NCBI GenBank assembly: GCA_965207375.1
Contig: OZ242274.1
Span: 1,344,001 to 1,408,000 of the forward strand
Direction: 5' to 3'
From: Nitrosopumilaceae archaeon
Lineage (GTDB): Archaea; Thermoproteota; Nitrososphaeria; Nitrososphaerales; Nitrosopumilaceae
DNA length: 64,000 nt
Of the stretch, positions 11,397 through 56,766 are shown piece after piece (position 1 is the stretch's first letter; each line of letters opens with the position of its first letter). Below the pieces are notes generated by a model that was given only the letters and a program-made list of their open reading frames with translations, ran no database searches and was not told the DNA's origin. The translations under genes and the position numbers were made by a program.

Positions 11397-11430
11397 ACAA
11401 GTATTTTATAGTAATGATACAATATAAAAT

Positions 11431-15299: not shown

Positions 15300-16062
15300 A
15301 AGGTATACATGAACAAGAGAGAATACAAATGGGAAGAACACCACTATAAGATGGTAGACGAATGTGAAAAAATGTTCAAAGATGGTACCCAAGGTAAAAA
15401 AATAGATATTTAGTTTAATGTATTTTTAGTTATTTTATGATATTCTGGAAATGTATAACTACATTTAACACTAATTTTAACAAAAAATATGACTACCTTT
15501 CAGATCCATCAATAGACCTTATACAACACTTAAGAGAAAATTATAACATATGATGTTCCGACAAACCATGAGGATTATGTTCCATGTGAACATATTGAGA
15601 AGAGGTACTTGTTCACGTAATAGAGTTTATTTGTGCCCAGATGATATCATGTTACGAAAAATTAGGTACGAGGTGTACACGTACACATTATGTGCGAATA
15701 CAAGTATTCCTATTCTAAATGGGTCCTACCAATTGCATTAGGGTTAAAATTATTGTTACCACACTCATAACATACAAAGAATATTGATACAATGGTTCTT
15801 TTTTTGACAAATCATCTGATGAAATATCCATTTTAGGATGTTTTTTTGATATGTAGAAAGTGCTCGTTTAAACTGTTTTTGTTGTCTTACTTTGATATCC
15901 CATTTATAACGATGAAATCTTCCTGTTATTTCGACTTTTGAATCTTTAAGTTCCTGTTCTAATTTCAGGATCTTTTGCAGATCTTCACATTGATTTTGGG
16001 TCAAACGCTGATCTTTTAATGTTAACCGTAATCTTATGTTTGGAATGCTTGGAAAAGCCTGC

Positions 16063-24464: not shown

Positions 24465-24692
24465 TCACAGCTGTAAAATCATCTCATGTACCTGTCCTGC
24501 AGGGGCTGATAACACCTTTAGAATTACTTCCTTTCTTATACCATCACTTTGGTATATTATTTTGATTCGTTCAGTACCTAAAATACTCACACTATACAGT
24601 TCAGATATTACCACACCGTCTATCCTGATGGTACCATCAATGTGCAGTACCGTATGTGTCCCATCTATACTACAATCAAACTCGCCTTTCAT
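24465..24692 (-). CDS. Hypothetical protein co-transcribed with the VirB11-like ATPase
   Basis: Overlaps the 3' end of the ATPase gene. Confidence 0.45.
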   Translation of the reverse strand: MKGEFDCSIDGTHTVLHIDGTIRIDGVVISELYSVSILGTERIKIIYQSDGIRKEVILKVLSAPAGQVHEMILQL

Positions 24693-26136
24693 AGTATCTC
24701 CTCAAAATGTCAAATACAGCCTTTGGATTTTTAGCTTCCTGTTTAACACATTCGTTTAGCAATCCCATTCTTTTTTTCATATCCTCTGGCCCGTCTCGTA
24801 TTCCGCATACGGTACAGGCCTCGATATATCTTGCACATTCATCAAGTGGTTTCTTGTTCAGCAATTTATCTACAAACACATCATACTCGTATACCGCCTC
24901 TATCTTGATTTTGCCTGTTTCATCAGGTACGATTTCTGAAATATTATTTACCCGTCTCACATTTTTACCGTGTAAATCAACTAGTCTTGTATTCATACAA
25001 AACCATGTTAGTGCAATCTCACCATCAGAAATTTTATTTCCACGCATTCGTGTTATTGCGCCTTCTGCCGTACTTGCATGAAAGCTTGTCAGTCCGCCGT
25101 GGCCGGTACCCACACTCTGAAACAACATCTCCATATCATTGAGTCTTATTTCACCTATTACCTCAAAGTCTGGACGCTGTGTCAGACTAGAATCTATCAG
25201 ATCCTTTATTTTGATGTCATATTTTGATGCAAGCATTCCGTAACTTTTACGAGTGTTGTATCTTACCCAGTCTGAATGTGGTACCTGTAATTCCAAAGTA
25301 TCCTCGATAGTAACAATGCGCCATCTGGGATTCATCATCGTCATCAGACTAGATAGTAACGTGGTTTTTCCAGAACCTGTAACTCCGATTACTAAACCTA
25401 CTGCCTTTGCGTCAAGTAGGGTCCAAAGGTAAGCTGCGGCCTCTTCACTTATTCCGCCTCCAGAAATTATATGAGTTATAGTTAAAGGAGATTCTGGAAA
25501 TTTCCTGATAGCAATTATGGGCCCAGGCTTTGATACCTGACTGCCAAAGGTACATGAAATTCTAGAGCCATCTGGCATGTATGTAACTGAAATAGGTGAG
25601 CTTTCTGTGGGTTCAGTACCTGTCCTGCCATAAATTCTTTGAATGAACTTTTCCATTTCGATACTATCTGGAAATTTGATGTTAGATTCTAGTGACTGGA
25701 ACTGTCCAGAATATTTCTTGTGTACAATGTGTATGTTTCTGTCATATGCAGAACACAAAATATCTTCTATACCAGGATCTCGCATGGGTACATCAAGCAA
25801 TCCATTTCCCAACATGTCGCGCCGGATATAATATCGAATGTTTGAGAATTTCTTTACAACACTTTCGTATATTTCCAGTCTTTTGGCAGTATCCCAAAAT
25901 GTCTTTTCAAACTTTTGTGTCACTTCCTCATCTGTCTCATCTGTGAGTTCTGTAGTCATTTCCATCTTTTTTATGATTTTATCATACATTTCATCTGTAT
26001 CTGATGGAATTTGTGGTTCATCTACCATGTATCTACCAGTATCAGTTATGGTGACTTTGACATCTCCTATATCGTATTGTTCTAGTATACCGGCCTCTGT
26101 TGTTTTCATATCTGCACGCAAGAGTCTGTAATCCAA
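24676..26136 (-). CDS. VirB11/TadA-like type II/IV secretion ATPase
   Basis: DPGIEDI, IAIRKF, Walker A GVTGSGKTT, TIEDTLEL, RPD..VIGEIR and TGHGGLTSFHA. Confidence 0.9.
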   Translation of the reverse strand: MDYRLLRADMKTTEAGILEQYDIGDVKVTITDTGRYMVDEPQIPSDTDEMYDKIIKKMEMTTELTDETDEEVTQKFEKTFWDTAKRLEIYESVVKKFSNIRYYIRRDMLGNGLLDVPMRDPGIEDILCSAYDRNIHIVHKKYSGQFQSLESNIKFPDSIEMEKFIQRIYGRTGTEPTESSPISVTYMPDGSRISCTFGSQVSKPGPIIAIRKFPESPLTITHIISGGGISEEAAAYLWTLLDAKAVGLVIGVTGSGKTTLLSSLMTMMNPRWRIVTIEDTLELQVPHSDWVRYNTRKSYGMLASKYDIKIKDLIDSSLTQRPDFEVIGEIRLNDMEMLFQSVGTGHGGLTSFHASTAEGAITRMRGNKISDGEIALTWFCMNTRLVDLHGKNVRRVNNISEIVPDETGKIKIEAVYEYDVFVDKLLNKKPLDECARYIEACTVCGIRDGPEDMKKRMGLLNECVKQEAKNPKAVFDILRRYYERRV

Positions 26137-26273
26137 TGATACTACAAAGTCATTTTGTATAAAAGGGACTAGGTTTTTGAAAATGTCAGCCTGTCTGGTT
26201 TACAATACACATTGACCTGCCAACAGATACAGCAGATTTTGTAATCCACAATTATTTCAAAGATTAAATCATA

Positions 26274-26345: not shown

Positions 26346-26511
26346 ACTATAGGGCTTTTAACTATATTAATTTTCAAGGAAATTCACGCCTGAAATCATA
26401 CGATTTTCTTGTATTTTTTGCCTACAAATCCATTTTTTCTCAAAATGACAGTATCAGAGGCAAAATCACCCACATTTTGCCCGTTAAATACTAAACATAA
26501 TACTGTACACG

Positions 26512-28416
26512 TTGTTTGGAAAAAAGAAGAACACATCAAAAAAGGATACGCCAAAAAAGACACCAAAGAAAAAGATGCCAAAAATAAGCTACAAGCTACG
26601 TCCCACAAATTATGCCATTTTATCTGAACAAGAAAAAATGGATGTTTTAAGAAATTTCATCAGGATATTTCGAGGCTCATCAGAAAAACCGGTCCGCATG
26701 ACTATAATGAACAAATCATCCATAGTATCAATACCAGGTGACACTGAACCCAGAAACTATACAGAACGTGCAGTATACATCACATCCAAATACGACATGG
26801 GGCCAGAAATTATGGGAAGCGGATTTCCCAGTACCAGATTAGATGAACCACTTGATTTTGCCATTGAAAAAGAGAATCTAAATTCTATGAAAATAAAACC
26901 ATCAGGTTGTTTTCGTGCATATGTTGTTTATGATTTCTCTCATAGTATTAGACCCGCTTGGCTCTCAAAACTTGCTGATTTGTGTAGTATAGTAAATGTT
27001 GATGTAAAGTTTATCCGTCCGGATAAGGCAGGCAAGATGCTACTTGTTCATGCAAATACTGTAGGTAGCCGTATTGGTAAAAGATATCAAGAAGAAGCAG
27101 AAACTGCACGAGCATTAAACGATATGCTAACAGACAATGATACTGTAATTTACGAGTGTACAATTTCTACTATCGTTACATCAGAAGATGAAAAATCTTT
27201 GAAAAAAGCATGTGCTGAATTTGAACGCCAAGCAAGAAGACAGCAGATTAAAGTAATGTCAGTACAGGGCAAACAAGCTGAAATACTATCTGGCTGGGGT
27301 CATCCATTTATCTTTCCAGAACAATCCACTGCTGCATTTTATCCGTTCATGTCTGGCGACCTAATGGAGGCTTCAGAATCAGGCGGTGTATACTTGGGTA
27401 CAAATGAGCTCACAGGTGTCCCCGTAGTATATGATTATCTAAACCGTACCAACTACAACATGACTATACTGGGCTCTTCCGGATTTGGTAAATCAATGAC
27501 TGCAAAAACATACATTGATAATTTCTTTTCCATGATATACTCAAAGTACGGCAAGGATCACCGAATCATGGCATACATCTTTGATCTGCACGGAGAATAT
27601 GCAAAATTAGCAGATCATATGGGAATGGAAACAGTAGATTTACTATCTACAAACCAGATGGGCCTAGACCCGTTTGTGTTATTTGAGTCAAAAAATGCAG
27701 CAGTGGATATAATTACTGATGTTGTAGATATGCCTGCAAATCTAAAATCTTTGACTGTATCAAAAGCACAAAATGTAGGTACCACACGGGAATTGGTAGA
27801 AAAGTTACGTGCAGATACTTCTGCGGATTCTGGTGACTGTAGAGCTGCTGCCACATATTTGGCACAGTTTGCAGAAGGTGATCTAGCAAAGGTCTTTTCT
27901 GGTGACGTAAAATTAGGCGATAAAACCGTAATTGCCATGCGTGGTGCAAGTGAGACAAAAATCAACGCCATGCTGATATCTTTGGCACTACAAAAGGCAT
28001 GGCAGGATATGAGGGCAGCACCCACTCATGTGCCAAAGTTTCTGGTACTAGAGGAGGCATGGTTCACTTTAAGGATGCCCTCTACTGCTAAAATAATATC
28101 AAATATTGCCCGCTCTGGACGAAAGGAAAATGTCCACATGATTGTCATGACACAGGATATCAACGAGGTACTATCTAACGAGCACGGCGCTGCAGTAATT
28201 CAAAATTCTGCCACTGTAATTTTGATGAGATTGCAGCATGACTCTGCTGAATTATTACAAAAGGTGATAAATATTTCAGCAAATGAATGTGATGATATCA
28301 CTACAATGGATAAGGGTCAGGCAATAATTCGTGCAGATTCGAATCGAATTAAAATGAAGGTTCGTCCCACACCAGAACAGATGAAACTCTTTGATACTTC
28401 AGCTGGTGCAGAATAA
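26512..28416 (+). CDS. VirB4-like conjugative ATPase
   Basis: VYLG..G.PV, N.NMTILGSSGFGKS, FDLHGEY, VLEEAW, RSGRKE..TQD and GQA. Confidence 0.85.
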   Translation: MFGKKKNTSKKDTPKKTPKKKMPKISYKLRPTNYAILSEQEKMDVLRNFIRIFRGSSEKPVRMTIMNKSSIVSIPGDTEPRNYTERAVYITSKYDMGPEIMGSGFPSTRLDEPLDFAIEKENLNSMKIKPSGCFRAYVVYDFSHSIRPAWLSKLADLCSIVNVDVKFIRPDKAGKMLLVHANTVGSRIGKRYQEEAETARALNDMLTDNDTVIYECTISTIVTSEDEKSLKKACAEFERQARRQQIKVMSVQGKQAEILSGWGHPFIFPEQSTAAFYPFMSGDLMEASESGGVYLGTNELTGVPVVYDYLNRTNYNMTILGSSGFGKSMTAKTYIDNFFSMIYSKYGKDHRIMAYIFDLHGEYAKLADHMGMETVDLLSTNQMGLDPFVLFESKNAAVDIITDVVDMPANLKSLTVSKAQNVGTTRELVEKLRADTSADSGDCRAAATYLAQFAEGDLAKVFSGDVKLGDKTVIAMRGASETKINAMLISLALQKAWQDMRAAPTHVPKFLVLEEAWFTLRMPSTAKIISNIARSGRKENVHMIVMTQDINEVLSNEHGAAVIQNSATVILMRLQHDSAELLQKVINISANECDDITTMDKGQAIIRADSNRIKMKVRPTPEQMKLFDTSAGAE

Positions 28417-28585: not shown

Positions 28586-29431
28586 TTGTCAAAGCAGATA
28601 TTCAATACACAACACAAAAATAATTTAGATACTATCGAGCAAAAGTTAGGTAAACCATACTATAGAGATGATACAGTGTTGTTGTACAACATGGATTGTA
28701 TAGATCTTTTAAGCAAGATTAATTCTAAATGTTTTGATTTAACTATAACTTCACCACCATACAATATTGGAAAAGAATACGAAATAATTCAAAAACATGA
28801 TGATTACTTGCAATGGTGCACAAAATGGCTTGATCTGATTTTTAATGTAACTAATGATAACGGTGCGTTTTGGCTCAACCTTGGATATTTTGAATTGCCA
28901 TCTAAAGGTAAGGCGGTCCCAATAAATTATCTATTATGGGATAAAACAAAATTTTATTTTATGCAAGAAATTGTATGGTATTATAAAGCAGGCGTGGCTA
29001 CAAAAAAATATTTTTCACCAAGAAATGAAAAATATTTGTGGTATGTTAAAAATTCCCAGAAATACATATTTAATTTAGATGATGTGCGTGATCCAAATGT
29101 AAAATATCCCAACCAGAAAAAAAATGGAAGGTTAAAGTGTAATCCAAATGGAAAAAACCCTACAAACGTTTGGGAAATACCCAAAGTCACATCTGGTAAA
29201 AACCGGTCTTCAAAAGAACGAATTAATCACCCTGCTCAATTTCCACTAGATGTGATAGACAGAATAGTAAAATCATGCAGTAATGCCAACGATTTGATAT
29301 TTGATCCTTTTATTGGCTCTGGAAGTACAGCCGTATCTGCATTAATGAATAATCGATTAGCATTGGGTTGTGACATAAATACAGAGTATTTAGATATAAC
29401 AATTAATAGAATAAAATCAATTAATTGTTAA
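28586..29431 (+). CDS. DNA methyltransferase, N4-C/N6-A beta class (ScaI-like system)
   Basis: TSPPYN, HPAQFP and DPFIGSGST. Confidence 0.9.
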   Translation: MSKQIFNTQHKNNLDTIEQKLGKPYYRDDTVLLYNMDCIDLLSKINSKCFDLTITSPPYNIGKEYEIIQKHDDYLQWCTKWLDLIFNVTNDNGAFWLNLGYFELPSKGKAVPINYLLWDKTKFYFMQEIVWYYKAGVATKKYFSPRNEKYLWYVKNSQKYIFNLDDVRDPNVKYPNQKKNGRLKCNPNGKNPTNVWEIPKVTSGKNRSSKERINHPAQFPLDVIDRIVKSCSNANDLIFDPFIGSGSTAVSALMNNRLALGCDINTEYLDITINRIKSINC

Positions 29432-30100
29432 CATCTTGTATTTTGCAGCATTTGGAGCCAATCTTGACTGTTGACCTGATTGTGCTTTTTGTCCTATCCA
29501 ATCATTATGGTCCAACCAACCTAATCATATCAGTTTAATTTTTGGGTGTGTATTATTTACACTAAACTTTTCAAAATTAATTGCAAGATAATAGCCTGAT
29601 TTTGATTTTTTGGGTGTTTGTATAGTTTGTGTATAGCTTCTATTTCCAAAAATTTTTGATGGGTTTGAGGAGGTCTTTACTTCGATTGAAAAACGTTTGT
29701 TTTCCATATTGACTATATCCTTATCTTGTGCTTCTTTTTCACACCTCCATATTTTTGGATTTGAATTTGATATTTCAAGACAAATAAGTTCATGTAAGAA
29801 AAAACCCATAATTTGTGGTTTTGGAAAAATATCTACACCGATTTTATATCTTCCAATAGTTGTATTCATAATACAATCCCAAGAATCCGATACAGTTTTT
29901 TTAATGTAATCTGTAGTTAATGGATGTTCTTTTATCAGCAATTTGGTTTTTGATTTCCATTGTGATTCATCTAAATTTAGGTATGGTGAACTCAATAATT
30001 CTGTTGGATTTTTAGAGTATATTTGTGATCTGTGAAAATAGTGGCTTGTAGTACCGTTCAAATGTATAATTTGCTTTTTTGTCCTGATAAATAGACCCAA
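29417..30100 (-). pseudogene. ScaI-family restriction endonuclease with an in-frame TGA at 29525-29527
   Basis: PQIMGFFLHELI, SIEVKTSS, GNRSY and KSGYYLAINF. The frame continues LGWLDHNDWIGQ...GQQSRL to 29417. Confidence 0.75.
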
Positions 30101-30721
30101 ATAATTGACAAAATATTAGCAATATTTTCATTTTTCTTTTTTGGTTCTCCAAACACAATTTTTGTACCAATGATTAAGCCCTTTACAGGATACTCATCAT
30201 CTTCATTCATGATTATACATGATTTGTTTTAGTATTTATGATTCCATCAAAGGATTTCCAACTGTTATCGTACCAAAACCCTCAATTATTGTATTTAAAT
30301 ATCCCAATAACATACGATACATTGAAGAAATCATTCTTTGCGGGTTTTTGAAAAAACTCGTTTTTAGAAAAACAAAATTCGGCTAATCATTTGACTACTC
30401 TAGACCAAAGTAACCTAATGATTAATTTTGAACCTAATTTGCAGTTACGCCTCGCTTGCTGTATCTTCACGAACACAATTTACAAGATGCCGATTTTAAT
30501 GAACATAAATACAAAAATCAACGATAAAGCCTAATTCCGTGCATGCAATGTATGATTTTATGATACTGTATTTAAAGAGCATATAAAGAGTGTATAAAGA
30601 AAGACTAGAATTTACAGAAAATACTTTGGATTTTATGTTAACGGCATTTAACATGTTTATTTTATTTTCTGCAAAACCAGCACAAATACAGTCCTTAAAT
30701 ACGAAATACTATTGTGGTATC

Positions 30722-31048
30722 ATGCTCGAACAGAAAAAAGACGACAGCGACAATCTACAAAAATACAAGGCTATGTTGATTTCAACATTATTTGCAGCTA
30801 TCATTGTGTTTTTGGCACCATCACTAATTCTAATAATGACTGGTAGTGATAGTACTGATGAGGCCTCATTGATTACTCCACCTGCTGGTACGCTTCCAGA
30901 AGAAATAGAGAAAGGCATCAAAGAGATGTATGATTTAATCATATGGGCTGTCAGACTCGTACTAGTAGTCATGGTTATAGTGTCAGTCATGATGATGTGT
31001 GTAAATCCGGTCAGGATAACACATGTAAAGCGATGTAGTGTATGTTGA
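30722..31048 (+). CDS. Small two-TM protein, VirB2/conjugative pilin-like
   Basis: Two hydrophobic helices; element-type promoter 27 nt upstream of the ATG at 30722. Confidence 0.5.
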   Translation: MLEQKKDDSDNLQKYKAMLISTLFAAIIVFLAPSLILIMTGSDSTDEASLITPPAGTLPEEIEKGIKEMYDLIIWAVRLVLVVMVIVSVMMMCVNPVRITHVKRCSVC

Positions 31049-31464
31049 GTCCATTTTTTTTATTTTTTATTTCCTGTGTACTGGTCATACCCATGATACT
31101 ATCTGGTGTATTGTCTGTACAGCAGGCTTTGATGTGTGTGGTGCCAGGTGTTGCGATATACTGTACTGGTCTATATCGTGATGTTACAAGTACGGTATCG
31201 TTTGGTTCAGCTGATATGGTACGACACATCGAGTTGTCACCTGTTTTTTCCTACATGTGTAGATACGGATACGGTACTGCAATATCGGTACATATAGCAA
31301 TTGAAATGATACTGGTATTTGTTATATTGCCTGTACTGTTGATGTCATTTCATGACGTGGTGTATATTGTAGTTAGTATCATGTCACTTTATGCACTTGG
31401 TGGCATACACTGGATAGGTGGCATACATAATGACAGACTTGCCCTTAATAGCAAATTAGTTTAG
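31042..31464 (+). CDS. Membrane protein
   Basis: About four hydrophobic segments; overlaps the upstream gene. Confidence 0.6.
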   Translation: MLSPFFLFFISCVLVIPMILSGVLSVQQALMCVVPGVAIYCTGLYRDVTSTVSFGSADMVRHIELSPVFSYMCRYGYGTAISVHIAIEMILVFVILPVLLMSFHDVVYIVVSIMSLYALGGIHWIGGIHNDRLALNSKLV

Positions 31465-31472
31465 GGGATACA

Positions 31473-31991
31473 ATGAATCTTGATACCGAAAATGTCATTG
31501 TTCGGACCAACTGTGGCAGGAAATTCAATCTAGATGATCTCATACGGTATGGTTCTGCATTAAAGGACAAGATGTCGGGTGCCGCATACAGGTTTACAAT
31601 ACCTTCTGTAACCGGAGATAGGGAGGCAGTAGTTCGGGTTTATTCTAATGGTACTATTGTGGCATCAGGATCAAATACGGTACATCGTGGCGTCATGGTG
31701 ACAAAAAGAGTCATGGACTTGCTTGGATGTAAGGGTGCAGTATCTATATGTCAGGTGATAATGTCAGGGACTATCTCTGTGCCTGGGAGTATATCTGGAA
31801 TAATTTCCAAACTAGACATGGATGTAAAGTTTGTACAAGAAATTATGGGCGGTATGATTATAGTACGGGATAGTGATGTACTTTGTCAGATATTTCCTAA
31901 AATTGATTTGCACAGTGTAAGGGCTTCTGGTCCAGACGAGAAAACAATCTGGAATTCGGTAAAACGCATTGAAGGGCAGTTTTTGTCTTGA
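31473..31991 (+). CDS. Highly divergent TATA-binding-protein (TBP) homolog
   Basis: 172 aa with two TBP-like half repeats: ENVIV...GRKFNLDDL...YR..P...VRVYSNGTIVASGS and ICQVIMSG...KFVQEIMGGMII...CQIF...VRASG. Confidence 0.65.
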   Translation: MNLDTENVIVRTNCGRKFNLDDLIRYGSALKDKMSGAAYRFTIPSVTGDREAVVRVYSNGTIVASGSNTVHRGVMVTKRVMDLLGCKGAVSICQVIMSGTISVPGSISGIISKLDMDVKFVQEIMGGMIIVRDSDVLCQIFPKIDLHSVRASGPDEKTIWNSVKRIEGQFLS

Positions 31992-32369: not shown

Positions 32370-32648
32370 ATGAGTGCAAAAGAGAGACTAGTTGATGCTA
32401 CAATTCTTTTGCGTTGTGTTAATAACAAACACATTTGCAAGAACTTACGTGATGCATTATCTAATGTTGATGGTGTTACAGAAGCATTCTGTACTGGAGA
32501 ACAGATAAGCGGAATTGAATTCTGTGTAGGTGGAACCATTGTTGCTACTTCGAGACGACTTGAACAAATTAAACGGGAAGTACACCAATTGAAAAACAAA
32601 AACAAAATTATCGGAGTAGAAAAAACCGCAATGGTTATTGCGGTCTAA
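32370..32648 (+). CDS. Lrp/AsnC ligand-binding-domain-like small protein
   Basis: L..VDGVTEAF and GVEKT.MVIAV pattern. Confidence 0.55.
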   Translation: MSAKERLVDATILLRCVNNKHICKNLRDALSNVDGVTEAFCTGEQISGIEFCVGGTIVATSRRLEQIKREVHQLKNKNKIIGVEKTAMVIAV

Positions 32649-34032: not shown

Positions 34033-34095
34033 GTAAATTTTTCCCCTAAATTTGGGCATTTTGGGGCTTAAATACTAAACATAATGGTGGTACTA

Positions 34096-34683
34096 ATGAC
34101 ACATAGAAACAAATCTGTGGCCCTTTCAGCCATTCTTGGCATGGTCATAGGTCTTGGACTTACCGGCGCTGCTGGAGGTGGACTATACTATGTCTTCCAA
34201 GAGCAGTCAGACCTGTTTGCGACTTCAAGCAATGTTGAGATAAAAAATCTTAATGCAATAAAGCGTGGCGATGAACTAACCATAACTGCCAACCTGAAAA
34301 ATGTAGGATCGACATCAATTACTGACGTTCATCTGTCTGAATTGACTAGTGGTGATAAGTACAAGGTAGCATACACAGAAGGTTCTGCTCCTGCTTGTAT
34401 CTTTAAAGTCAACGGGGCCCTGTTTAATATAAGCGGCAACGTTACTACTAATGCTCCTAGAATAGAAATCGCAGATGGAATATCGGGTTGTACATCTCCT
34501 TCTGCATTTAGTGAAGCGGTTCCACTTCAAGGTGGGCAGACTAAAGCATTAAAGTTCACAATAACAAGTGCAGAAAACGACAACGTGCTCATCTCTGACA
34601 GACTGACCATACAACTTAGTTATAGTTCAGGTCAAGACACACTCCAATCTGACATCTACAACACCCGCGTTAGACCGGGTTAA
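34096..34683 (+). CDS. Archaeal type IV pilin-like protein
   Basis: Class III-like signal RNKSVA/LSAILG, then a hydrophobic helix (GGGLYYVF) and ..KNVGST.I motif. Promoter 28 nt upstream. Confidence 0.7.
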   Translation: MTHRNKSVALSAILGMVIGLGLTGAAGGGLYYVFQEQSDLFATSSNVEIKNLNAIKRGDELTITANLKNVGSTSITDVHLSELTSGDKYKVAYTEGSAPACIFKVNGALFNISGNVTTNAPRIEIADGISGCTSPSAFSEAVPLQGGQTKALKFTITSAENDNVLISDRLTIQLSYSSGQDTLQSDIYNTRVRPG

Positions 34684-34905: not shown

Positions 34906-35277
34906 ATGAATGAGACAGAAAGAATTTCTGAATATGTCGATACGGGTGAGAAAATTATCATATCAACAAGGCAGAAAAGATGGGTGCCGGGCGGCTCACC
35001 TGTAACTCCAGACACTATCTTTGTCACAGACAAGAAAATCATTATAAGAAATCCAATGATGCTTGGTCTGCGGGAGACAGTCCAGTATTATAATATTCAA
35101 GACATCATAAATATTTCACACAGAAAGGGGTACTTTTCATCGGCACTACATGTAACAGCACCCGGAATGGGCACTGCTGCACAGAGACCTGAAAATCGTG
35201 ACGGTATAATTTCAGGCATTGATAGTGTAGATGCCATACGGATTGTTCAATTGGTACGGGAGAGACAAAATGAGTGA
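34906..35277 (+). CDS. PH-domain (bPH-like) protein
   Basis: GEKII..RQ.R..PGGS..TP.TIFVTDKKIIIRNP. Confidence 0.7.
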   Translation: MNETERISEYVDTGEKIIISTRQKRWVPGGSPVTPDTIFVTDKKIIIRNPMMLGLRETVQYYNIQDIINISHRKGYFSSALHVTAPGMGTAAQRPENRDGIISGIDSVDAIRIVQLVRERQNE

Positions 35278-35977: not shown

Positions 35978-36742
35978 ATGTTGAAAAACCCCATTAAACT
36001 AAACACCATACATTGTGGGGATGTACTTGATATACTGAAAACATTTCCATCTAATTCCATTGATTTAGTTGTTACTTCTCCTCCATACAATCTTAAAAAT
36101 TCAACTGGAAATGGCCTTAAATGTGGAAATGGTGGTAAATGGCCTCAAGCTGCATTAATTGAGGGGTATGACAAGTATGATGATGCAATGCCATATGACA
36201 AGTATGTGGAATGGCAACGAAAATGTCTCAAATCCTTGATGCGTGTAATTAGTGATAACGGTGCCATATTCTACAATCACAAATGGCGAGTACAAAAGGG
36301 AATAATACAAGACAGGCATGAAATAATAGAAGAGTTTCCTGTACGACAAATCATAATCTGGGAACGTAATGGGGGAATAAACTTCAACCCTGGCTATTTT
36401 CTGCCTACATATGAAGTCATATACCTCATAGCCAAGCCTGGTTTTAAGTTGAAAAAGGATGCATCCAAAATTGGAGATGTCTGGAAAATAGGACAGGAAC
36501 AAAAGAATTGGCATCCGGCACCGTTTCCGGTAGAATTGGCATCAAGATGTATAGGTTCTACTGGTGCAGATATAGTGCTGGATCCATTTATGGGTTCAGG
36601 CAGTACAGCGATAGCTGCAGAGCAGAATGGACGTAAATGGGTCGGAATTGACATTTCAAAAGAATACTGTACTAAAGCCAAGACTAGGATCAAAACTGCT
36701 AGAAAACATGAACGTTCTCAGGATATTACTGCTTGGCGATGA
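35978..36742 (+). CDS. DNA methyltransferase, N4-C/N6-A beta class
   Basis: TSPPYN, HPAPFP and DPFMGSGST. Confidence 0.9.
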   Translation: MLKNPIKLNTIHCGDVLDILKTFPSNSIDLVVTSPPYNLKNSTGNGLKCGNGGKWPQAALIEGYDKYDDAMPYDKYVEWQRKCLKSLMRVISDNGAIFYNHKWRVQKGIIQDRHEIIEEFPVRQIIIWERNGGINFNPGYFLPTYEVIYLIAKPGFKLKKDASKIGDVWKIGQEQKNWHPAPFPVELASRCIGSTGADIVLDPFMGSGSTAIAAEQNGRKWVGIDISKEYCTKAKTRIKTARKHERSQDITAWR

Positions 36743-37496
36743 TCATATTTACCAAGGAATCACTAAAGGAAAATCTATGTGATATTCATGATCGTGGATG
36801 GATAGTTAATACTCGTAGCAACAATGATGGTGGGGCGGGCAACATGTTGGAAGATTTGCTAGGTATTGAAGAAAACAAACTACCGCTTCCAAACGCCGGT
36901 GAATGGGAACTGAAAACTCAGAGGGCCAATACTACATCATTAGTTACCCTATTTCATTTAGAACCATCTCCAACTGCCTGCAAATTTATATCTAAAATAC
37001 TGCTTCCAAAATACGGTTGGCCACATAAGGAGGCTGGCAAGAAATACGGTTATGATGAAAAAAGTTTTCGGCAGACTATAACATCTGGACAATACACAGA
37101 TCGTGATTTCACAACCATGTCAACCATAAGCTAGAACGCGTGGAAGTGTCATTTGATCATGCATCTATAGATACATCCAGACATGATAGGTGGAAAAATA
37201 CTGTTCGGGATTTGGGAGAATTGAACCCTGTACCATATTGGGGATTTGATGATTTATTCCACAAGGCAGGTACCAAATTACACAAAACAATACACGTCAC
37301 AGCAGAACTGAAATGTGAAGGAGATGTTGCATACGTTAGATATGTTAAATTTACGATGTTGGAGGGATTTACACGTGAGTTGTGGATAAAAGCAATTGAG
37401 AAAGGTATGGTTTTAGTAGATTTTGATGCACGGACAGGACACAATCATGGGACAAAGTTTAGACTACGACAAAACGCATATCCAAAATTATTTTAA
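36733..37496 (+). pseudogene. MvaI/BcnI-family restriction endonuclease, frameshifted near 37120
   Basis: G.GN.LEDLLGIEEN, ELKT, TLF..EP and HNHGTKFR, split over two frames. Confidence 0.8.
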
Positions 37497-45341: not shown

Positions 45342-47324
45342 TTATTCCTTCCTTCCATCAAATTCATCAAAGTATTCTTTTGTCATTTTTCTAGATCTTG
45401 CTTTTGATACTCTGATTTGATCCCTTTCTGGTATCTTATCATGTACCATTCTTCCTGCAATGTCGTCTGTCCCTAACTCATGTGCAACTCTCGGGGTTCC
45501 CTTCCAGAAGTCTATTTCCATTTGTTTTTTAGGCTCAATGTCGAGATTACCTTTTTCATTTGTGTTATTTTTGACAAACTTTTCCAACTCTGTTTCAACA
45601 ATCTCTCTATTTCCAACATCTGATTTTGTACTATCCCAACCATGAGTTATTACACCTTGATTAAGCAGACCTGTAGCATGAGCCTTGTTTCTAGACTCAT
45701 CGGCTATCTTTTCCAAAGTTGTGCCAATTATTTTCTCTTGCTCACCTACCGGCTTTAAATTTGCAGCATCAGGATCTACAGAATGGCCCATCTGCACTCC
45801 CTGACCTATTGCACTTTGCATCTGGCCAGTCGGTATTCCTACAGAGCCTGGACCAAGATTTCCAGGAGCGCCGACACTTGCATGACTTGCAAGGGCGCCA
45901 CCGGCCATTCCAGAACCAAACGCGCCCATTATTCCCTTGATTCCCTTACCTGCCTTGTTTGCATCCATTGCAGCAGTAGCTCCAGAGGTAGCTGCCATGC
46001 CGGTAACCATGGTAGATGTATTGACTGCACTAGAGACAATCTGTGTGGCCATTTGAGTTACTGAACCCAATAATGGCACCATGATAACAGGTAGTGTAAT
46101 AGCAAAAAACACAACTCCAATAGACGTGATCCATGTATACAAATGACTGCTTACTTTGGACTCTACACCATCTTCCAAACCTCCGGCTTCAGCTACAGCC
46201 CCTGCACCTACCACAATTATAACAGCAGACATTAACGGCAACAAAAGCAACGCGGGTAGTGCCTCCAACATTTGATTTGCGAGTTTATCTACTTTGGGTA
46301 TTAGACTTAGCATCAAAAATATCGGCAAGCCTGCTGCCACCATTGCAACTAGCATGTCAGCCATGATGCCAATTAAGAGTGCCATTATCAGAATTTGTAG
46401 TGCAACTAGTGCCTTTGTTAATCCCAAAAATACATTGGTAAAGGTACCCTCTATCCCCTTTTGTACGTCGTGTTGTAAATTGCCTAGCCATGCGTTGTTG
46501 GTGATGTAATTGGTAATGGTACCTACCTGTGTTGTGGCGTTAACTGCAGTATCTGGATTTTTTCTGCGTGGCTCTTTGAGAGCATCTGCATCTGATATGA
46601 CAGTCATGTTTGTTACACCTAAAATTTCATTTCGTATGTGTTGGTCCATTCTAGTTTCAGTATCTTCGGTATTTCGTAGCATCTGTGAAAACACATATGA
46701 CACCTTTAGTTCAGGTTTGCATACATCTTGTGGGTCACCTATGCCAACTGCCTTTTCTACACTCTTGATATATGGTGACCTTTCATATTCTCCACGAATC
46801 TTGTCTGCTGACCAGTCATCAGGACAGGGCGAATCTGGATTAAATGAATATGCCGGATTTAACACCCAGTATGAAATATTTTCCATGGTATCTGATCCTA
46901 TATCCCAAATGGGTGGAAAAATTACAATCACCAACATAAACATCATCGACTTTGAAATCATTTTGTTTGCAGTACCGGGTGCCATGATTCCAGTTTCAGA
47001 TGCCTCCATAACTTTGGAGATACCGGCAACAATTAGCACTGCACCAAACACACCTACTGCTAGATATCGTATGAGGGCAAATGCCTCAAACATTTCATTT
47101 CCTATCTCTCCAGATTCAGACGTGTCAGGGTCCACATCAACATCATAATGAAATTTCGGAGTCTCAAATGCAAGACTCATGTATGTAGATTCTATTGCAC
47201 CAGAAAATGAAACTATAACACCAATTAATGCAACAATCATCATCATTAAACCGCCTATCAAAATGATAGAACCAATACCTGCAGAGCGCCCTCTCGGTGT
47301 AGATGTATTGTGGGATTTTCTCAT
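45342..47324 (-). CDS. VirB6/TrbL-like polytopic membrane protein
   Basis: Multiple TM helices, P.FL.L..IP motif, G/A-rich C-terminal tail and element-type promoter. Confidence 0.65.
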   Translation of the reverse strand: MRKSHNTSTPRGRSAGIGSIILIGGLMMMIVALIGVIVSFSGAIESTYMSLAFETPKFHYDVDVDPDTSESGEIGNEMFEAFALIRYLAVGVFGAVLIVAGISKVMEASETGIMAPGTANKMISKSMMFMLVIVIFPPIWDIGSDTMENISYWVLNPAYSFNPDSPCPDDWSADKIRGEYERSPYIKSVEKAVGIGDPQDVCKPELKVSYVFSQMLRNTEDTETRMDQHIRNEILGVTNMTVISDADALKEPRRKNPDTAVNATTQVGTITNYITNNAWLGNLQHDVQKGIEGTFTNVFLGLTKALVALQILIMALLIGIMADMLVAMVAAGLPIFLMLSLIPKVDKLANQMLEALPALLLLPLMSAVIIVVGAGAVAEAGGLEDGVESKVSSHLYTWITSIGVVFFAITLPVIMVPLLGSVTQMATQIVSSAVNTSTMVTGMAATSGATAAMDANKAGKGIKGIMGAFGSGMAGGALASHASVGAPGNLGPGSVGIPTGQMQSAIGQGVQMGHSVDPDAANLKPVGEQEKIIGTTLEKIADESRNKAHATGLLNQGVITHGWDSTKSDVGNREIVETELEKFVKNNTNEKGNLDIEPKKQMEIDFWKGTPRVAHELGTDDIAGRMVHDKIPERDQIRVSKARSRKMTKEYFDEFDGRKE

Positions 47325-47405
47325 TATATCACAATATACTTTAGTATTTAACGGACAAAATTCAGGTCAAAATCCACCCCAAAATGGAGAGAACAACAAT
47401 AGCAG

Positions 47406-47482
47406 AGAGATGTTTTGTAATTAGAAAACCATGCCTAACAAGAGTAAAAATACGTGCCCAGATCTAATTACGGTTCCCCTCT
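47406..47482. mobile_element. MITE family A copy
   Basis: AGAGATGTTTTGTAATTAG ... CTAATTACGGTTCCCCTCT. Confidence 0.65.
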
Positions 47483-47501
47483 CATCTTTGCTTAAATGTA
47501 T

Positions 47502-47706
47502 ACTTTGTCGACTTTGCAAGGCTCAGGCGTGGATTTTGTCGACTTTGTCGACTTTGCAAGGCTCAGGCGTGGATTTTGTCGACTTTGTCGACTTTGCAAG
47601 GCTCAGGCGTGGATTTTGTCGACTTTGTCGACTTTGCAAGGCTCAGGCGTGGATTTTGTCGACTTTGTCGACTTTGCAAGGCTCAGGCGTGGATTTTGTC
47701 GACTTT
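47502..47706. repeat. Perfect 40-bp tandem repeat, ~5 copies
   Basis: Unit GCTCAGGCGTGGATTTTGTCGACTTTGTCGACTTTGCAAG. Confidence 0.95.
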
Positions 47707-48984: not shown

Positions 48985-49238
48985 AGTAGATATTACCCTT
49001 ACAAAATTCCTAAAATCAATCCACTCGATCTTTTCATGCTAAATGCACTCGAATTTAGCAATTAATATTTCTGCTTCAATGGGGCCGTAACGTTTTCGTT
49101 ACAGAAATATGATCGTGGACTGCCAAAGTGCACAGAATAATACATTCTCAACCACTTTAAACCTCATATCAACAACAGTAGACATCGTGGAAAATCCTGC
49201 AAATTTCATCCTTAAATACAAAATACAATTGTGGTACC

Positions 49239-49451
49239 ATGGAAAAATCACCTTCCAAAATCTGGTATATTGCTCATGCATTTTTGTGGGTAGTTTCAGG
49301 ATTTGTATGCTATATTGTCTGGCGGGATCAAAACAAACAAGCAGCAAAGATGCACCTTGTTCATTCATTGTGGCTCCCAATAATACCAACCGTACTGTTA
49401 TGGGGCCTCATATTTGCAATTGCGCCAGAAGAAATGTCTATGCTCCCGTGA
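49239..49451 (+). CDS. Small membrane protein
   Basis: Two hydrophobic segments; element-type promoter 27 nt upstream. Confidence 0.65.
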   Translation: MEKSPSKIWYIAHAFLWVVSGFVCYIVWRDQNKQAAKMHLVHSLWLPIIPTVLLWGLIFAIAPEEMSMLP

Positions 49452-52433: not shown

Positions 52434-53114
52434 ATGGCAAGACAAAAACACTCTGAGGCCAAAATGCCATGGCTTTCCAAAATGACCTCAATGTCGCAGC
52501 CTATTTTTGCAGTCCCACTGCTTGGTCTAGTATCTACGTACCAAGCCTTGATAATTTTTGCCCTAGGTATTCCGTCTCTGTTTATTACAATGCATATAAC
52601 CGGTGAGATACACTTGGGTTTAGCACCGTTTTTGATTTTCACAATATTTGCAATGATCAGGCCTCCACTGATAAGCTATGAAGGCAGGATGATTGCTATA
52701 CTGTCATTTCATCTTTTCAAGGGTTCGTCAAAAAAATCAAAGAAAAAGTCTAAACAGAAAACAAAGGGTTCAGGATTTTTTGGAAAGGCAGGTGCCACAC
52801 CAGACATAACAGAACCAGCACCCGTACAAACCAAACCAGAAATCATGACAGTACAGGTACATGGAGACAATCTACAAGAAATATCCATGATGCTTTCACA
52901 TCGGGGCACACCGATACGACGTCGCAAGGTATGCATACTGCTTGACGGGGACCCGATTAAAACTGTAATATCCTCGGTATCAGGCGAGGTCCTAACAATT
53001 TTATCCAACGATCTATGTGTTGGAAATCGTACAATATCCATTGCAGAAATCTCCGGCGATACCATAGGGGAGACATTGATGTCTAGGGAGATAAAATTTG
53101 TACGTATATCTTAG
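52434..53114 (+). CDS. PrgI/VirB3-like membrane protein of the transfer region
   Basis: Two N-terminal TM segments followed by a basic linker; element-type promoter. Confidence 0.45.
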   Translation: MARQKHSEAKMPWLSKMTSMSQPIFAVPLLGLVSTYQALIIFALGIPSLFITMHITGEIHLGLAPFLIFTIFAMIRPPLISYEGRMIAILSFHLFKGSSKKSKKKSKQKTKGSGFFGKAGATPDITEPAPVQTKPEIMTVQVHGDNLQEISMMLSHRGTPIRRRKVCILLDGDPIKTVISSVSGEVLTILSNDLCVGNRTISIAEISGDTIGETLMSREIKFVRIS

Positions 53115-55131
53115 TGTGCTTTTGCTTTGTGTAGCATTTACAGGTGGTTTAGTGCCAGTATTTGCATCCTCTGAACAGAACATGGCATCAGATGCATTGG
53201 CACAACAATCAAGATGGGACATATCTCCTGAAATACACGACACATACACATACAGAATATGTGAATCAGCCAAGACTTGTTATGATGCTGCATTTACTGT
53301 GATACACAGCACAAAACATACAGTTACCATGTCTGTGTCAATATCAGAAATACTTGGGGTATACCTTACAGGTACAGATGGCCCTTACAGATTATACGTA
53401 CCAACAGGATACGAATCACAGGATTCACCTACCATACACTATGCTGATTATACTGGAGAGCCGATACAGTTTGAAATTACATTTGATCCACAAGCCCATA
53501 AAATAATCTCTCATACTGCCCCCTACTCACATACGTATTTTCATTCAATCAAAAACACATTGTTTCTTTTGGGTGAGGGCATACGCATAGGGGACGGTAC
53601 CCTTCTAGAACATCCGCCTATACTTGCAGTAGGTGAAAGATGGAGCCGTGATAATGACGTAAATGTATACGTAATAGATACCGAGGGACACTATTTCTTT
53701 GAAGGGTTGCAATATGCTGGTTTGTTGTATATGGTACAATATTCCGACAGAACCGTACTTGCTGACTTTATAATATCTCCTGATACTCCACTCCCAATTG
53801 CAGCAGAGGTCACAGCAGATTATACTGAAATAAGTGAGGAAAAATACATTGACACACGATTCTGGTACAGACTGATAGATTCATCGATTATACCTAACCA
53901 ATCAAAAATGGTTTCTGATGTTACGCCAGATACAATCTTACCCGAACCGCTGTGCCTGTACAACAACATCCCAGTCAGTTGTCATGATCCTGGTACACCT
54001 GAAATAGTCCTGCCTGACCCGCCGATGGTACCTCATACACCAGAGGTTACCACAAACAAAACAGTCGATTTTACCGTATTGCCTCCGGAGATAATTACAA
54101 AAATCCTAAACAGTACAGAGTCAGAACTAGAGGAATTATTTGAATTGTTCCTGAAATATATTGGACAAAAGCCATCCTTTGAGATAACTCTGAATACAGA
54201 TTCAGACACATACACACATGGTGACGAAATCATATTCAGCGGTACAAGCTCTAGTGTAGTATCTGATACAGCCCAGATAATGATATACGATGTACACAAT
54301 GCAACTATTGCCTCTGTACCAGTTACAGGTATAGACGGTACATATTCTACCAGTATAGACACTAATGGTTGGGATGTACATGGTGTATTTGGCGCTACTA
54401 TATCACATGATACTCTAAAAAGTCAGGTATTCTTTGAAATAAAACCAGACGACAGGCGTGTAACAGTTGATGGCAGGTTGACAGATGGAATTGATACAGG
54501 AGATGGATATGTAGTAATACATCTAAAGGCGGGCTCTGCCACTGAGATACTAGTTACATTTTCACGCACCGTACTAGATTCTGTATCTGACGGCAAAACT
54601 GCACCGTTTGAGATACTAGTTGACAGTCAATCCGTACCGTATGATGATTTTAGTACGTCTGCTCACCGCATCATTGCAATTCCAAACATACCCACATTTG
54701 CACATATAGTGGAAATGTTTCCATTAGGTGTTGAAAAACAAGCATGTACAGGTAAAGCAGCATGCATATCAGGTGTACTAGCTGAGGTTATAGATGGGGA
54801 CACTATCCGGTTACAGGACGGCTCACGCATACGATTCACGCTCTCCTCAGCTCCAGAATTGACACAGTCTAGTGGTATACAGGCAAAGCAAGAGATTGCA
54901 AGTGTCTGTCCTGCAGATTCGGAGGTAACCATAGACGAGGATGACGGACAAAAATATGATAGTTTCGGTAGAACGATAGGTATAGTGTATTGTAACGGAA
55001 TCAATCTAAATTCACATCTGCTAGAATCAGGCTATGGTACAATATCTAAAGAATTTTGCAAAACAAGCGAGTTTGGTCTGCATGACTGGGCGATACAACA
55101 TGGCTGTCCCGGCCTGTCAGATGTACCTTGA
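53098..55131 (+). CDS. Secreted protein with C-terminal thermonuclease (SNase) domain
   Basis: Signal peptide, VIDGDTI, IR....APE, D.FGR.IG.VYC and LN..LLE.G. Confidence 0.8.
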   Translation: MYVYLSVLLLCVAFTGGLVPVFASSEQNMASDALAQQSRWDISPEIHDTYTYRICESAKTCYDAAFTVIHSTKHTVTMSVSISEILGVYLTGTDGPYRLYVPTGYESQDSPTIHYADYTGEPIQFEITFDPQAHKIISHTAPYSHTYFHSIKNTLFLLGEGIRIGDGTLLEHPPILAVGERWSRDNDVNVYVIDTEGHYFFEGLQYAGLLYMVQYSDRTVLADFIISPDTPLPIAAEVTADYTEISEEKYIDTRFWYRLIDSSIIPNQSKMVSDVTPDTILPEPLCLYNNIPVSCHDPGTPEIVLPDPPMVPHTPEVTTNKTVDFTVLPPEIITKILNSTESELEELFELFLKYIGQKPSFEITLNTDSDTYTHGDEIIFSGTSSSVVSDTAQIMIYDVHNATIASVPVTGIDGTYSTSIDTNGWDVHGVFGATISHDTLKSQVFFEIKPDDRRVTVDGRLTDGIDTGDGYVVIHLKAGSATEILVTFSRTVLDSVSDGKTAPFEILVDSQSVPYDDFSTSAHRIIAIPNIPTFAHIVEMFPLGVEKQACTGKAACISGVLAEVIDGDTIRLQDGSRIRFTLSSAPELTQSSGIQAKQEIASVCPADSEVTIDEDDGQKYDSFGRTIGIVYCNGINLNSHLLESGYGTISKEFCKTSEFGLHDWAIQHGCPGLSDVP

Positions 55132-55347
55132 TGATACCAGAAAACCCCACCTCTCAGGAGCAAAAATCCCTGTCTAGATCTAATTATGAATTATTTCTCA
55201 TGATAACTACAAAATGTAATGCTTTCACAAATGTTATGAAACAGTATAGACAATTAAATTATTTTTGAAAAATAATGTAAGATTGTATAATTAATACCTT
55301 AGAATTTATCTAAAGGTTTTTAGATGATTGTATGTTATATTATAATA

Positions 55348-55415
55348 TCCGTCTCCAAGGAATCGAACCTTGGCAACTGCAACTTCTAAGGGTCCGTTGG
55401 GAACCATCCAGACGG
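55348..55415 (-). ncRNA. 68-nt tRNA-like element with intact T arm/acceptor and reduced D and anticodon arms
   Basis: CCGTCT...CCAAGG TTCGATT CCTTGG AGACGG A; GC-rich island in AT-rich intergenic DNA. Confidence 0.45.
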
Positions 55416-55641
55416 TGATTTTATAATGACATAAACATCATTTTAATTTAAATTATAACGAATAATACTAAAAATCCATTTTATGGAAAAATTCTAGTAT
55501 GTCTAATATCTGAGTCATGTTTTGGTGTCAGATATTACAAATTATGTTTAGAGATTTAGGTGTGGTCTATTAGTTTTGTCATACTTGTTGAGACAATTTT
55601 GGGCATTTTGGGGCTTAAATATTAAATGATATTGTGGTATC

Positions 55642-56766
55642 ATGGCAAAACCTGTATGGTACGAATTAAGACCGTACAGAACCGATACTGATGTCGGTGA
55701 AGACAGCATGTTGAAACTATTAGATCATCTAGATAAATTTCTAATTGTCATATATCGTGACGAGTCATCAAAGATACGAATTTACGTTAGGACTTTGACA
55801 CAACACCTGTCTACCATATCCACACTAAAAGGCATGGAGGCAATATACTGCAACGAGTACCCGCCTGACTTGAACGGTATGACAGTATACAAAAAATACG
55901 GTATGCGCCGACACTGTGCATATAGCATAATTCCTAAAAACATGATTGTCACCTCAATATATCGTGCCATGGGAAACATGTCTGGATGTGCATTTTTGAC
56001 ACTAAACCTGAGAAAGGTAGATGCTGCACCTCCGATAAACGACTTTATTGCTACTTGTAATCGTGGACAGAATCCAGAAAGCAAACTAACAAACGCGCTT
56101 TCAACAGGTAAATCTGAAAAAAAGGCATCACATGTATCAAAGATGACACTTGCTAGAGAAAAACTAGCAAGTAGAAATCTGTTTTTGTGCAGGATGTTTA
56201 GTGGGGTCAAAGTATCTGGGGATGATAAAATAATTGAAGCCGTGTTTCCTTCAAGGGCGTTTATTTCAAAGAAAATTGATCAAAAACAACTCAAAAAAGA
56301 TATTGTCAGAAACATTGGATTTCCACTGTTTGGAGGGGATAAAAATTTAGTTCTTTCTGATTCTGAGATCTTTGGGTTTTTATCGCTTCCAAACAATGAT
56401 GATATCTCAAATGTAGAGTTTGATATTGGTAGGCTATCTTCTACTGCATCCGGACTTGCAGAGGGCTCATTTGGTACAGAATCTGAAAAGATACAGGAAG
56501 GTACCATACAGCAAGAAGATTTCTCAGAGTCTGAGGATTCGCAGGTGCCTGTAGAGGACTCTGGTGTACTGCGGAGGTGCAATAACAGGTTACGTCCAAT
56601 ATTGATAAAATGTGGCAAAATTATTCACAAAGTTGGACAAAATCTAAACTTGTACTTGAGGAGGTGCAATAACAGGTTACGTCCAATATTGATAAAATGT
56701 GGCAAAATTATTCACAAAGTTGGACAAAATCTAAACTTGTACTTGAGGAGGAAAAACAATGTTTAA
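55642..56766 (+). CDS. Hypothetical transfer-region protein with an 87-bp tandem duplication at its 3' end
   Basis: Element-type promoter; 29-aa repeat at 56573-56751. Confidence 0.6.
   Translation: MAKPVWYELRPYRTDTDVGEDSMLKLLDHLDKFLIVIYRDESSKIRIYVRTLTQHLSTISTLKGMEAIYCNEYPPDLNGMTVYKKYGMRRHCAYSIIPKNMIVTSIYRAMGNMSGCAFLTLNLRKVDAAPPINDFIATCNRGQNPESKLTNALSTGKSEKKASHVSKMTLAREKLASRNLFLCRMFSGVKVSGDDKIIEAVFPSRAFISKKIDQKQLKKDIVRNIGFPLFGGDKNLVLSDSEIFGFLSLPNNDDISNVEFDIGRLSSTASGLAEGSFGTESEKIQEGTIQQEDFSESEDSQVPVEDSGVLRRCNNRLRPILIKCGKIIHKVGQNLNLYLRRCNNRLRPILIKCGKIIHKVGQNLNLYLRRKNNV

Follow-up and report, generated by a model that had tools for sequence, protein, structure and literature searches.

The window, by which is meant the whole stretch of 64,000 nucleotides (nt) of DNA that was analysed (G000:C1:1344001-1408000), carries a gene for a protein resembling the TATA-binding protein (TBP) amid the genes of a transfer module. 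This TBP-like gene (31473..31991, +) is an open reading frame (ORF) that begins with ATG 31473 and ends with the stop codon at 31991, and its product of 172 amino acids (aa) falls into two halves, repeat 1 (approximately residues 1-86; 31473-31730) and repeat 2 (approximately residues 87-172; 31731-31988). It is the last of three genes in tandem, situated 8 nt downstream of a gene for a 140-aa hydrophobic or membrane protein (31042..31464, +), itself the partner of a pilin-like gene (30722..31048, +). The pilin-like product gave a weak match to Pfam T4SS_pilin (E 0.014), and no Pfam family was found for the 140-aa protein. For comparison, the proteins of the window were searched by tblastn against ~12-20 kb around the TBP-like gene in five relatives (loci L020-L024), in all of which the 140-aa protein was matched. 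The pilin-like gene probably begins at ATG 30722, in the reading frame of the GTG start listed at 30590; a promoter motif (described below) stops 2 nt before this ATG, and the tblastn matches of the protein in the five relatives begin at query residue 30-71, mostly 44-45.

Upstream, a VirB11/FlaI-type secretion ATPase (24676..26136, -; Pfam T2SSE, E 3.4e-31) and a VirB4/TraG-like ATPase (26512..28416, +; Pfam AAA_10, P-loop_TraG and DUF87) are encoded, with 57-65% and 53% identity, respectively, to counterparts in L020, L023 and L024. Downstream lie genes for a 199-aa protein with a hydrophobic N-terminus (34084..34683, +; matched in 5/5 relatives), the true start of which is probably ATG 34096, behind a motif copy at 34067-34092, and for a bPH-domain protein (34906..35277, +; Pfam bPH_3; matched in L021, L023 and L024). 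The module continues with a 660-aa protein (45342..47324, -; L023 and L024), with three genes for proteins of 226, 677 and 374 aa (starts 52434, 53098 and 55642; 52434..56766, +; L021-L024), the second of which has a weak Pfam SNase domain, and with a further conserved gene at 63541. Within the window, restriction-modification systems, IS66 and other transposases are interspersed among these genes. Traits of archaeal integrative and conjugative elements (ICEs) are thus present, namely a VirB4-type ATPase, a second secretion ATPase and pilin and membrane parts, and the set is kept in L020-L024. An integrase of family PF00589 was not found in the 64-kb window.

Several features of the surrounding DNA were recorded. 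Two tRNA-Phe(GAA) genes in inverted orientation (11322-11397, -, and 63365-63439, +), with 158-nt arms that are 79% alike, bracket ~52 kb holding most of the module. Beside the first, ORF 9920-11023 (-) has a paralogue elsewhere in the genome that overlaps a weak integrase match; the ORF itself gave no integrase call with Pfam at E <=1. A 682-aa ORF without a Pfam family (12040-14088, -) has at least 8 full-length paralogues, 62-71% identical, and many fragments on C1. A ScaI-type restriction-modification pair (28586-30100) is inserted between the VirB4 and pilin genes; a second, fragmentary copy (G000:C1:1575218-1576561), with its methylase (96-98% identical) in two pieces, adjoins a C-terminal VirB4 fragment 167 kb away. 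Other decayed copies of the module were seen near C1:1995000 and C1:2016400. An MvaI/BcnI-type restriction endonuclease is split into ORFs 36733-37134 and 37140-37496, while the adjoining methylase (35978-36742) is whole. Tandem 40-nt repeats (47457-47746; four near-identical registers and two degenerate flanking ones) overlap the 5' end of ORF 47707-48984 (-) and extend upstream of it. The 425-aa product combines AAA_16 with a winged helix and has a 64% identical paralogue at C1:1825201-1826058; protein and repeats could be an Orc1/Cdc6-like initiator with its iterons, and hence the replication origin of the element.

A divergent branch of the TBP family

Pfam TBP (PF00352) matches the TBP-like protein at residues 5-83, that is, in repeat 1 only (E 6.7e-4), with 19.9 bits against a gathering cut-off of 22.9 bits; its relatives in L020, L021, L022 and L024 reach 26.8-39.9 bits, above the cut-off and again in repeat 1 only. 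At E <=10, Pfam listed nothing but TBP for it, with no match to PF02486 or DUF7845. BLASTP against one host TBP was weak (E 0.007), identity to the two host TBPs is 20-21% (MAFFT), and a word-indexed protein search with the single sequence matched itself only. HMMER, run in full over 1.84 billion representatives, returned 20 proteins at E <=0.001, from which a 1472-aa leucine-rich-repeat protein (P0014) was dropped, leaving a family of 19 (query included) whose members are 24-46% identical to the TBP-like protein. Pfam TBP matches all 19 (best E 9.6e-12; DUF3378 is also touched in five). When the family profile was aligned with 16 canonical TBPs, hhalign returned a probability of 99.4% (E 9.9e-22) over 167 columns in both repeats, spanning template positions 4-178 of 186, and the PDB sequences matched by the profile, 35 distinct ones, were all TBPs (best 1.6e-16). 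On these alignments, the likeness of the family to TBP is well above chance. A neighbouring 92-aa ORF (32370-32648), considered as a TBP half, was ruled out by an hhalign probability of 0.08%.

Within its own genome, the family profile gave 197.5 bits for the TBP-like gene versus 45.8 bits for the two host TBPs, and by such scores the family is distinct from ordinary TBPs. TBPs from other classes of the phylum score 58-67 bits with the profile, across both repeats, and those of the host's own family ~46 bits, over repeat 1 and the first part of repeat 2. Since the former outscore the latter, a recent origin of the family from the hosts' TBP need not be assumed.

The predicted structure agrees with the profiles. 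An AlphaFold2 model built from the 19 family sequences, with neither templates nor canonical TBPs, reached a pLDDT of 91.6 and a pTM of 0.82, and the order S1-H1-S2-S3-S4/5-H2 occurs in it twice; single-sequence prediction gave a pLDDT of 33 only. Foldseek comparison of the model with the PDB returned TBPs in all rows printed to rank 44 (TMq 0.68-0.81; 175-186 columns aligned), the first other fold being a Rep_trans initiator at rank 45 (TMq 0.36). Among the Atlas neighbours, 28/30 are TBP clusters, with a TBPL1 cluster at rank 27. Viral TBP-like proteins are the best matches in BFVD, yet with TMq only to 0.74 they are weaker than cellular TBPs. From sequence and model together, the TBP-like gene is a full-length, two-repeat member of a small and very divergent family derived from archaeal TBP. 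The preliminary description, made from the letters and their translation, had proposed a divergent TBP homologue with the two-repeat pattern, and on ORF, profiles and fold this has been borne out.

In canonical TBP, two pairs of Phe residues kink the TATA box, an Asn in S1 and a Thr in S5 of each repeat lie in the minor groove, and the acidic C-terminal stirrup docks TFB. The corresponding positions of repeat 2 were taken from a MAFFT alignment of the 19 family members with 12 canonical TBPs, because hmmalign to the canonical TBP model left repeat 2 unaligned; the register agrees with that of hhalign. As hmmalign also placed the first stirrup inconsistently, the positions there were read from PDB TBPs aligned by HMMER. 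The four kinking positions are occupied by M34, Y57, M125 and F141, such that three of the four Phe are replaced, both of those in the stirrups by Met. It had been noted from the sequence that a single Phe is kept and that the stirrup segments are replaced, and both observations hold: F141 is the Phe in question, its repeat 1 counterpart being Y57, while KDKMSG (residues 31-36) and VQEIMGG (residues 121-127) align with the canonical P-E-Q-F-P-G stirrups, FVQEIMGG standing in the C-terminal one for YEPEQFPG. Both stirrup loops are rebuilt, and the first hairpin is longer than in canonical TBP. Across the family (n=19), the first kinking position is F in 9 (the hmmalign column being read by the HMMER/PDB alignment), the second is always aromatic (F10, Y9), the third is M9 F5 L4 A1 and the fourth F10 H5 Y2 T1 Q1.

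The two repeats differ in what they have kept. In repeat 1, the S1 Asn is N7 (present in 18/19), the Thr position is S65 (T in eight family members), and the G-K-I-x-C-x-G-A core is retained. At the Asn position of repeat 2 stands Q94, and the family is never Asn there (Q5 R4 H3 Y3 M2 G1 L1); the Thr position is S152, with Arg in 11/19. S1' of repeat 2 reads 'V-M-S-G' (M14, S14, G19), and 'RGPDE' takes the place of 'TGAKK' (G19, P16, D13, E14). The two acidic positions of the C-terminal stirrup, which we take to be TFB contacts in canonical TBP, are V121 and E123, and are acidic in 12/19 and 13/19 of the family. Columns N7, A29, V54, V56, G60, G66, A73 and G99 are conserved, and no near-invariant Tyr, Asp or Glu is among them. 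As only one kinking Phe is left and the Asn of repeat 2 is replaced, a canonical TATA complex is doubtful. The concave face is polar or basic, which would suit altered DNA binding better than its loss.

Distribution of the gene and of element-borne TFIIB

At E <=1e-15, the family profile matched 7/401 genomes of the class, all in the host's family (f1) and in 4/81 genera. One match (G291) was dropped, having 70 bits, an internal TGA and no module genes in its locus (L025), and six genomes were kept: G000, G109, G070, G147, G148 and G304. In a sample of the phylum, f1 genomes alone scored as family members; each further genome that matched did so once, at 58-67 bits, apparently through the ordinary TBP of another lineage. 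A further search, from which 80 loci were kept of 133, added no members (0/80): all of these ORFs score higher with the canonical TBP model (~210-228 bits for the 15 ranking highest with the family model) than with the family model (<=70 bits). Searches with single proteins gave one spurious bacterial match in genome contigs (P0001) and none in metagenome contigs (P0002).

The gene is found in constant company. The pilin-like, membrane and 199-aa genes adjoin it in 5/5 relatives (the pilin/membrane pair in 6/6 with the window), the 226-aa, 677-aa and 374-aa genes were found in 4/5, and VirB4 with VirB11 in 3/5; in G109, VirB4 is on another contig. In G304, the TBP-like gene is intact in a decayed module, the pilin gene being split by an IS/transposase, and neither VirB4 nor VirB11 was found in the 20 kb around it. 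In all five relatives the TBP-like and pilin genes are divergent; the tandem order of the window results from an inversion of the pilin-membrane pair relative to these. The loci range from 38 to 68% G+C, and an actin-like (ParM-type) gene occurs in two of them. In L024, a partial AmoC homologue (6860-7423, -) was observed inside the G148 transfer module, between VirB4 and the pilin gene. The preliminary view of the gene as element-encoded is upheld by its place beside VirB4, VirB11 and pilin-like genes in the window and in five other genomes of the same archaeal family.

VirB4-like genes were counted in 104/401 genomes, a figure that takes in three unpublished genomes (G326, G230 and G282). 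Seven genomes, that of the window included, have a close VirB4 (48-54% identity in the other six), and five of the seven have the TBP-like gene; of the two without it, G344 holds a remnant with a truncated VirB11 and G206 is represented by a 5-kb contig. A sister clade has VirB4 at 42-43% identity. Its locus L031 (G270) is compact, with the pilin-like and 199-aa genes directly divergent, and the TBP-like gene is absent from between them. The host genome carries an archaeal amoA gene (E 8.9e-115), two canonical TBP genes and three TFB genes, all far from the window. A single clade of VirB4/VirB11/pilin transfer modules, integrated in genomes of ammonia-oxidising archaea, carries the family.

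The thaumarchaeal ICEs described previously were reported, in the part of the paper available, to encode TFIIB homologues in every case (Krupovic et al. 2019; PMC6563490), and an element-borne factor of TFIIB type was proposed, in the accessible part of another, to alter the promoter specificity of RNA polymerase (Abby et al. 2018; PMC5797428). The TBP-like loci have no such neighbour: in the window no match to Pfam TFIIB (PF00382) was found, the nearest being ~145 kb away; in G147, G148 and G304 the nearest is >100 kb from the TBP-like gene; and in G070 and G109 there is none on the same contig. No TFIIB homologue is thus near the gene in 6/6 loci. In the sister clade, a short divergent TFIIB match lies 15-28 kb from VirB4 in 3/5 genomes (G270, G316 and G152), and none was found near VirB4 in G116 and G335. 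The pattern of either TBP or TFIIB is suggestive, though it comes from few and related genomes.

Other basal factors were noticed on what may be mobile DNA. Locus L030 (G316:C1:2430000-2449900), in another genome of the host's archaeal family, has a divergently oriented pair of extra TBP paralogues (13154-13705, -, and 13852-14373, +), 39-41% identical to the G000 host TBPs, and the surrounding 110 kb (G316:C1 2.33-2.44 Mb) also contain a second VirB4 and a number of divergent TFIIB matches. Mobile DNA of this archaeal group may often carry copies of basal factors. The words 'TBP' and 'TATA' are absent from the main text of PMC6563490, and its supplementary gene table mentions TBP, TATA or TFIID in a single row, which concerns a class IE element and not an ICE. 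No published description of the TBP-like family was found in the literature outside subscription journals, this supplementary table included. What is new is the divergent, mobile-element-borne branch; the kind of protein, TBP, is itself already known.

Promoters of the transfer module

A 26-nt promoter motif, CTTAAATACNAAAYANNATTGTGGTA, was recognized through repeat families D8 and D10, with its reference copy at 30694..30719 (+) before the pilin-like gene. A motif scan located other copies at 34067-34092, 49211-49236, 52406-52431 and 55614-55639 (all +), and two more are on the minus strand (47327-47352, with 4 mismatches, before the 660-aa gene, and 26140-26165), with a looser one at 26483-26508 (+). 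The motif ends 2-3 nt before the ATG of five window ORFs, and looser copies precede VirB11 and VirB4; the position of the copy at 49211-49236 points to a 70-aa membrane ORF at 49239-49451. At <=3 mismatches the window has 5 matches versus 0 in 100 shuffles, and at <=4 mismatches the whole 4.3-Mb genome has 8 sites, of which 6 are in the window, one is at C1:2016419, within the remnant of a related element, and one is elsewhere. The TTAAATA box ~24 nt before the ATG would be an archaeal TATA box (~-26), and the mRNAs would be leaderless.

The sequence directly before the TBP-like ATG, CTTAATAGCAAATTAGTTTAGGGGATACA (31442..31472, +), is located within the 3' end of the preceding gene; compared by eye, it appears to be a degenerate copy of the element's promoter motif. 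A purine-rich GGGGAT 7-12 nt before the same ATG could be a ribosome-binding site, with co-transcription from the pilin operon.

The motif as such is not shared. At <=6 mismatches, none was found in the relatives' loci except one 6-mismatch match in L024. What recurs there, even at 67% G+C, is C-TTAAA-W-R, a box situated 24-30 nt upstream of the start codon in most module operons, and all five relatives have a TTAAA-type box of their own before the TBP-like start codon. The preliminary description had named co-occurrence with VirB4 and with the promoter motif as a check on the gene's role; the association with a VirB4-type module was recovered (VirB4 being near the gene in 3/5 relatives), and that with the 26-nt motif was not, this motif being peculiar to the window's element.

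The same build, with a TTAAA-type box ~24-30 nt before leaderless start codons, is found in L031, which lacks the TBP-like gene. In G147, the box-to-ATG pattern occurs 21 times (6 in the reversed control), 3 of them in the element and 18 outside it. With 18/21 occurrences outside the element, the TTAAA-type box is an ordinary host-type promoter element, and, given L031 and the host genes of G147, the element promoters look host-type and recognisable without the TBP-like protein. Together with the restriction of the 26-nt motif to one element, these observations speak against any strict need for the protein; the earlier suggestion of an alternative specificity, by which it would switch on transfer genes in the manner of a sigma factor, is to be read as a hypothesis.

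In relatives, the divergent VirB11 and VirB4 starts are ~60 nt apart around a single near-palindromic box (e.g., GCTTAAAAGC; L023 ~15620-15730, L020 ~1990-2120, and also L031 ~8210-8280), as though two oppositely directed leaderless genes shared one TATA box. The window differs in having 375 nt between the two starts and a box for each.

Proposed function and relation to known systems

The reading we prefer, held tentatively and with somewhat less than even confidence, is that the protein is an element-encoded TBP paralogue acting on transcription initiation at the element's promoters. It would serve as the element's own initiation factor: the N-terminal repeat, which keeps the DNA-reading set of Asn 7, hydrophobic 9, aromatic 57 and Ser/Thr 65, would place it on AT-rich boxes of the TTAAA type ~24-30 nt before the leaderless module starts, and the remodelled C-terminal repeat would change the contact with DNA and with host TFB/RNA polymerase. 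Through this altered contact the element would gain private control of its transfer genes. We infer the DNA binding, the partner and the direction of effect of the protein. A bolder version, possible but doubtful, holds that one clade swapped the element-borne TFIIB for an asymmetric TBP that forms an element-private initiation complex with host TFB and polymerase. If true, an asymmetric TBP with one half reading AT-rich DNA and the other presenting a new surface would be an archaeal counterpart, built from TBP, of the sigma factors of phages or plasmids.

The same rebuilt half also bears on a contrary effect, in which the protein is a repressor or decoy that occupies TATA-type boxes or binds TFB without productive initiation, keeping the transfer genes silent until induction or damping host transcription. 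The repeat that has been remodelled is the one holding the TFB-binding stirrup of canonical TBP, with Val 121 at its first acidic position and 'RGPDE' in place of 'TGAKK'; in five relatives the gene points away from the adjoining pilin promoter, an arrangement often seen with repressor genes, and a sister module with the same promoters and no such gene fits a dispensable negative regulator. Yet roughly two thirds of the family retain the acidic stirrup residues, and the concave face is not acidic like that of DNA mimics, the isoelectric point of the protein being 8.96; we regard this role as less likely than not, though not far behind the preferred reading. Less probable again is an architectural one, in which the protein would bend DNA for transfer or replication of the element, as IHF or a relaxosome accessory protein does. 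The TBP fold bends DNA and the gene lies inside a transfer module, but no candidate origin-like repeat was found beside it in the window or the relatives, and a position abutting a divergent promoter is more in keeping with a regulator. In favour of an architectural part may also be counted that, in the available portion of the survey, no relaxase candidate was detected in thaumarchaeal ICEs (PMC6563490).

The protein could in principle also be a TBP-fold nicking enzyme akin to Rep_trans, Rep-Arvir or MOB_T relaxases: Rep_trans initiators have a TBP-like fold, with an archaeal branch, Rep-Arvir, described in 2026 (PMC13107129, as far as available), and RepD and RepDE appear as weak Foldseek matches (ranks 45 and 50; TMq 0.36-0.45). 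A nickase of this kind is very improbable, however, because no Tyr is invariant; neither is any Tyr, Asp or Glu column nearly so, the 172-aa protein has no wHTH or extra domain, only TBP was listed for it by Pfam, and the sequence homology is to TBP proper. Equally slight is the chance that the gene is a decaying, functionless copy of a captured TBP. Its Pfam score is below cut-off and the genome is rich in IS elements and gene fragments, but the ORFs are intact and full-length at 24-46% identity, in loci from 38 to 68% G+C, family-specific motifs are shared, and the AlphaFold2 model is confident; a C-terminal half that is remodelled yet conserved argues against decay.

Whichever way it acts, this is a natural TBP with one canonical and one rebuilt half, linked to a transfer module in uncultivated ammonia oxidisers. 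Archaeal elements are known to carry TFIIB, and their takeover of eukaryote-like initiation machinery is largely unstudied. The compact, expressible protein could be used to probe what changes the TBP saddle tolerates before it ceases to work at promoters, and TBP-type could be compared with TFIIB-type factors as alternative means by which elements control transfer genes.

Compared with archaeal TBP (PF00352; PDB 1ais, 1mp9 and 2z8u), the protein has the same two tandem repeats and fold, profile homology over both repeats, the G-K-I-x-C-x-G-A core and the S1 Asn of repeat 1. It differs in being only 20-21% identical to host TBPs and in lacking all but one of the kinking Phe as well as the Asn and Thr of repeat 2; its gene, moreover, is on a mobile element, whereas canonical TBP is at a housekeeping locus. 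Among eukaryotes, metazoan TLF/TRF2 (TBPL1) is a saddle-fold TBP paralogue in which kinking Phe are likewise replaced, and its cluster appears at Atlas rank 27; it is eukaryotic and chromosomal, and the likeness is a general one. Rep_trans and Rep-Arvir initiators, as described in the available part of PMC13107129, also place a TBP-like fold on mobile elements, but the TBP-like protein is half their size and lacks their invariant catalytic Tyr and acidic residues.

In the TBP-like factors of large eukaryotic DNA viruses (poxvirus VITF-3; PMC12917281, in the part accessible), a mobile or viral genome again encodes a TBP fold with an aliphatic residue in place of Phe, one such factor intercalating Ile. 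They differ in working alongside a viral polymerase and with a TFIIB-like partner that is fused to them or paired with them. Similar in setting are the TFIIB homologues of thaumarchaeal ICEs (PMC6563490 and PMC5797428, as far as available), in which a mobile element of ammonia oxidisers likewise carries a divergent basal initiation factor; there the factor has a cyclin fold, here it has the fold of TBP, and the six TBP-like loci are without a nearby TFIIB match.
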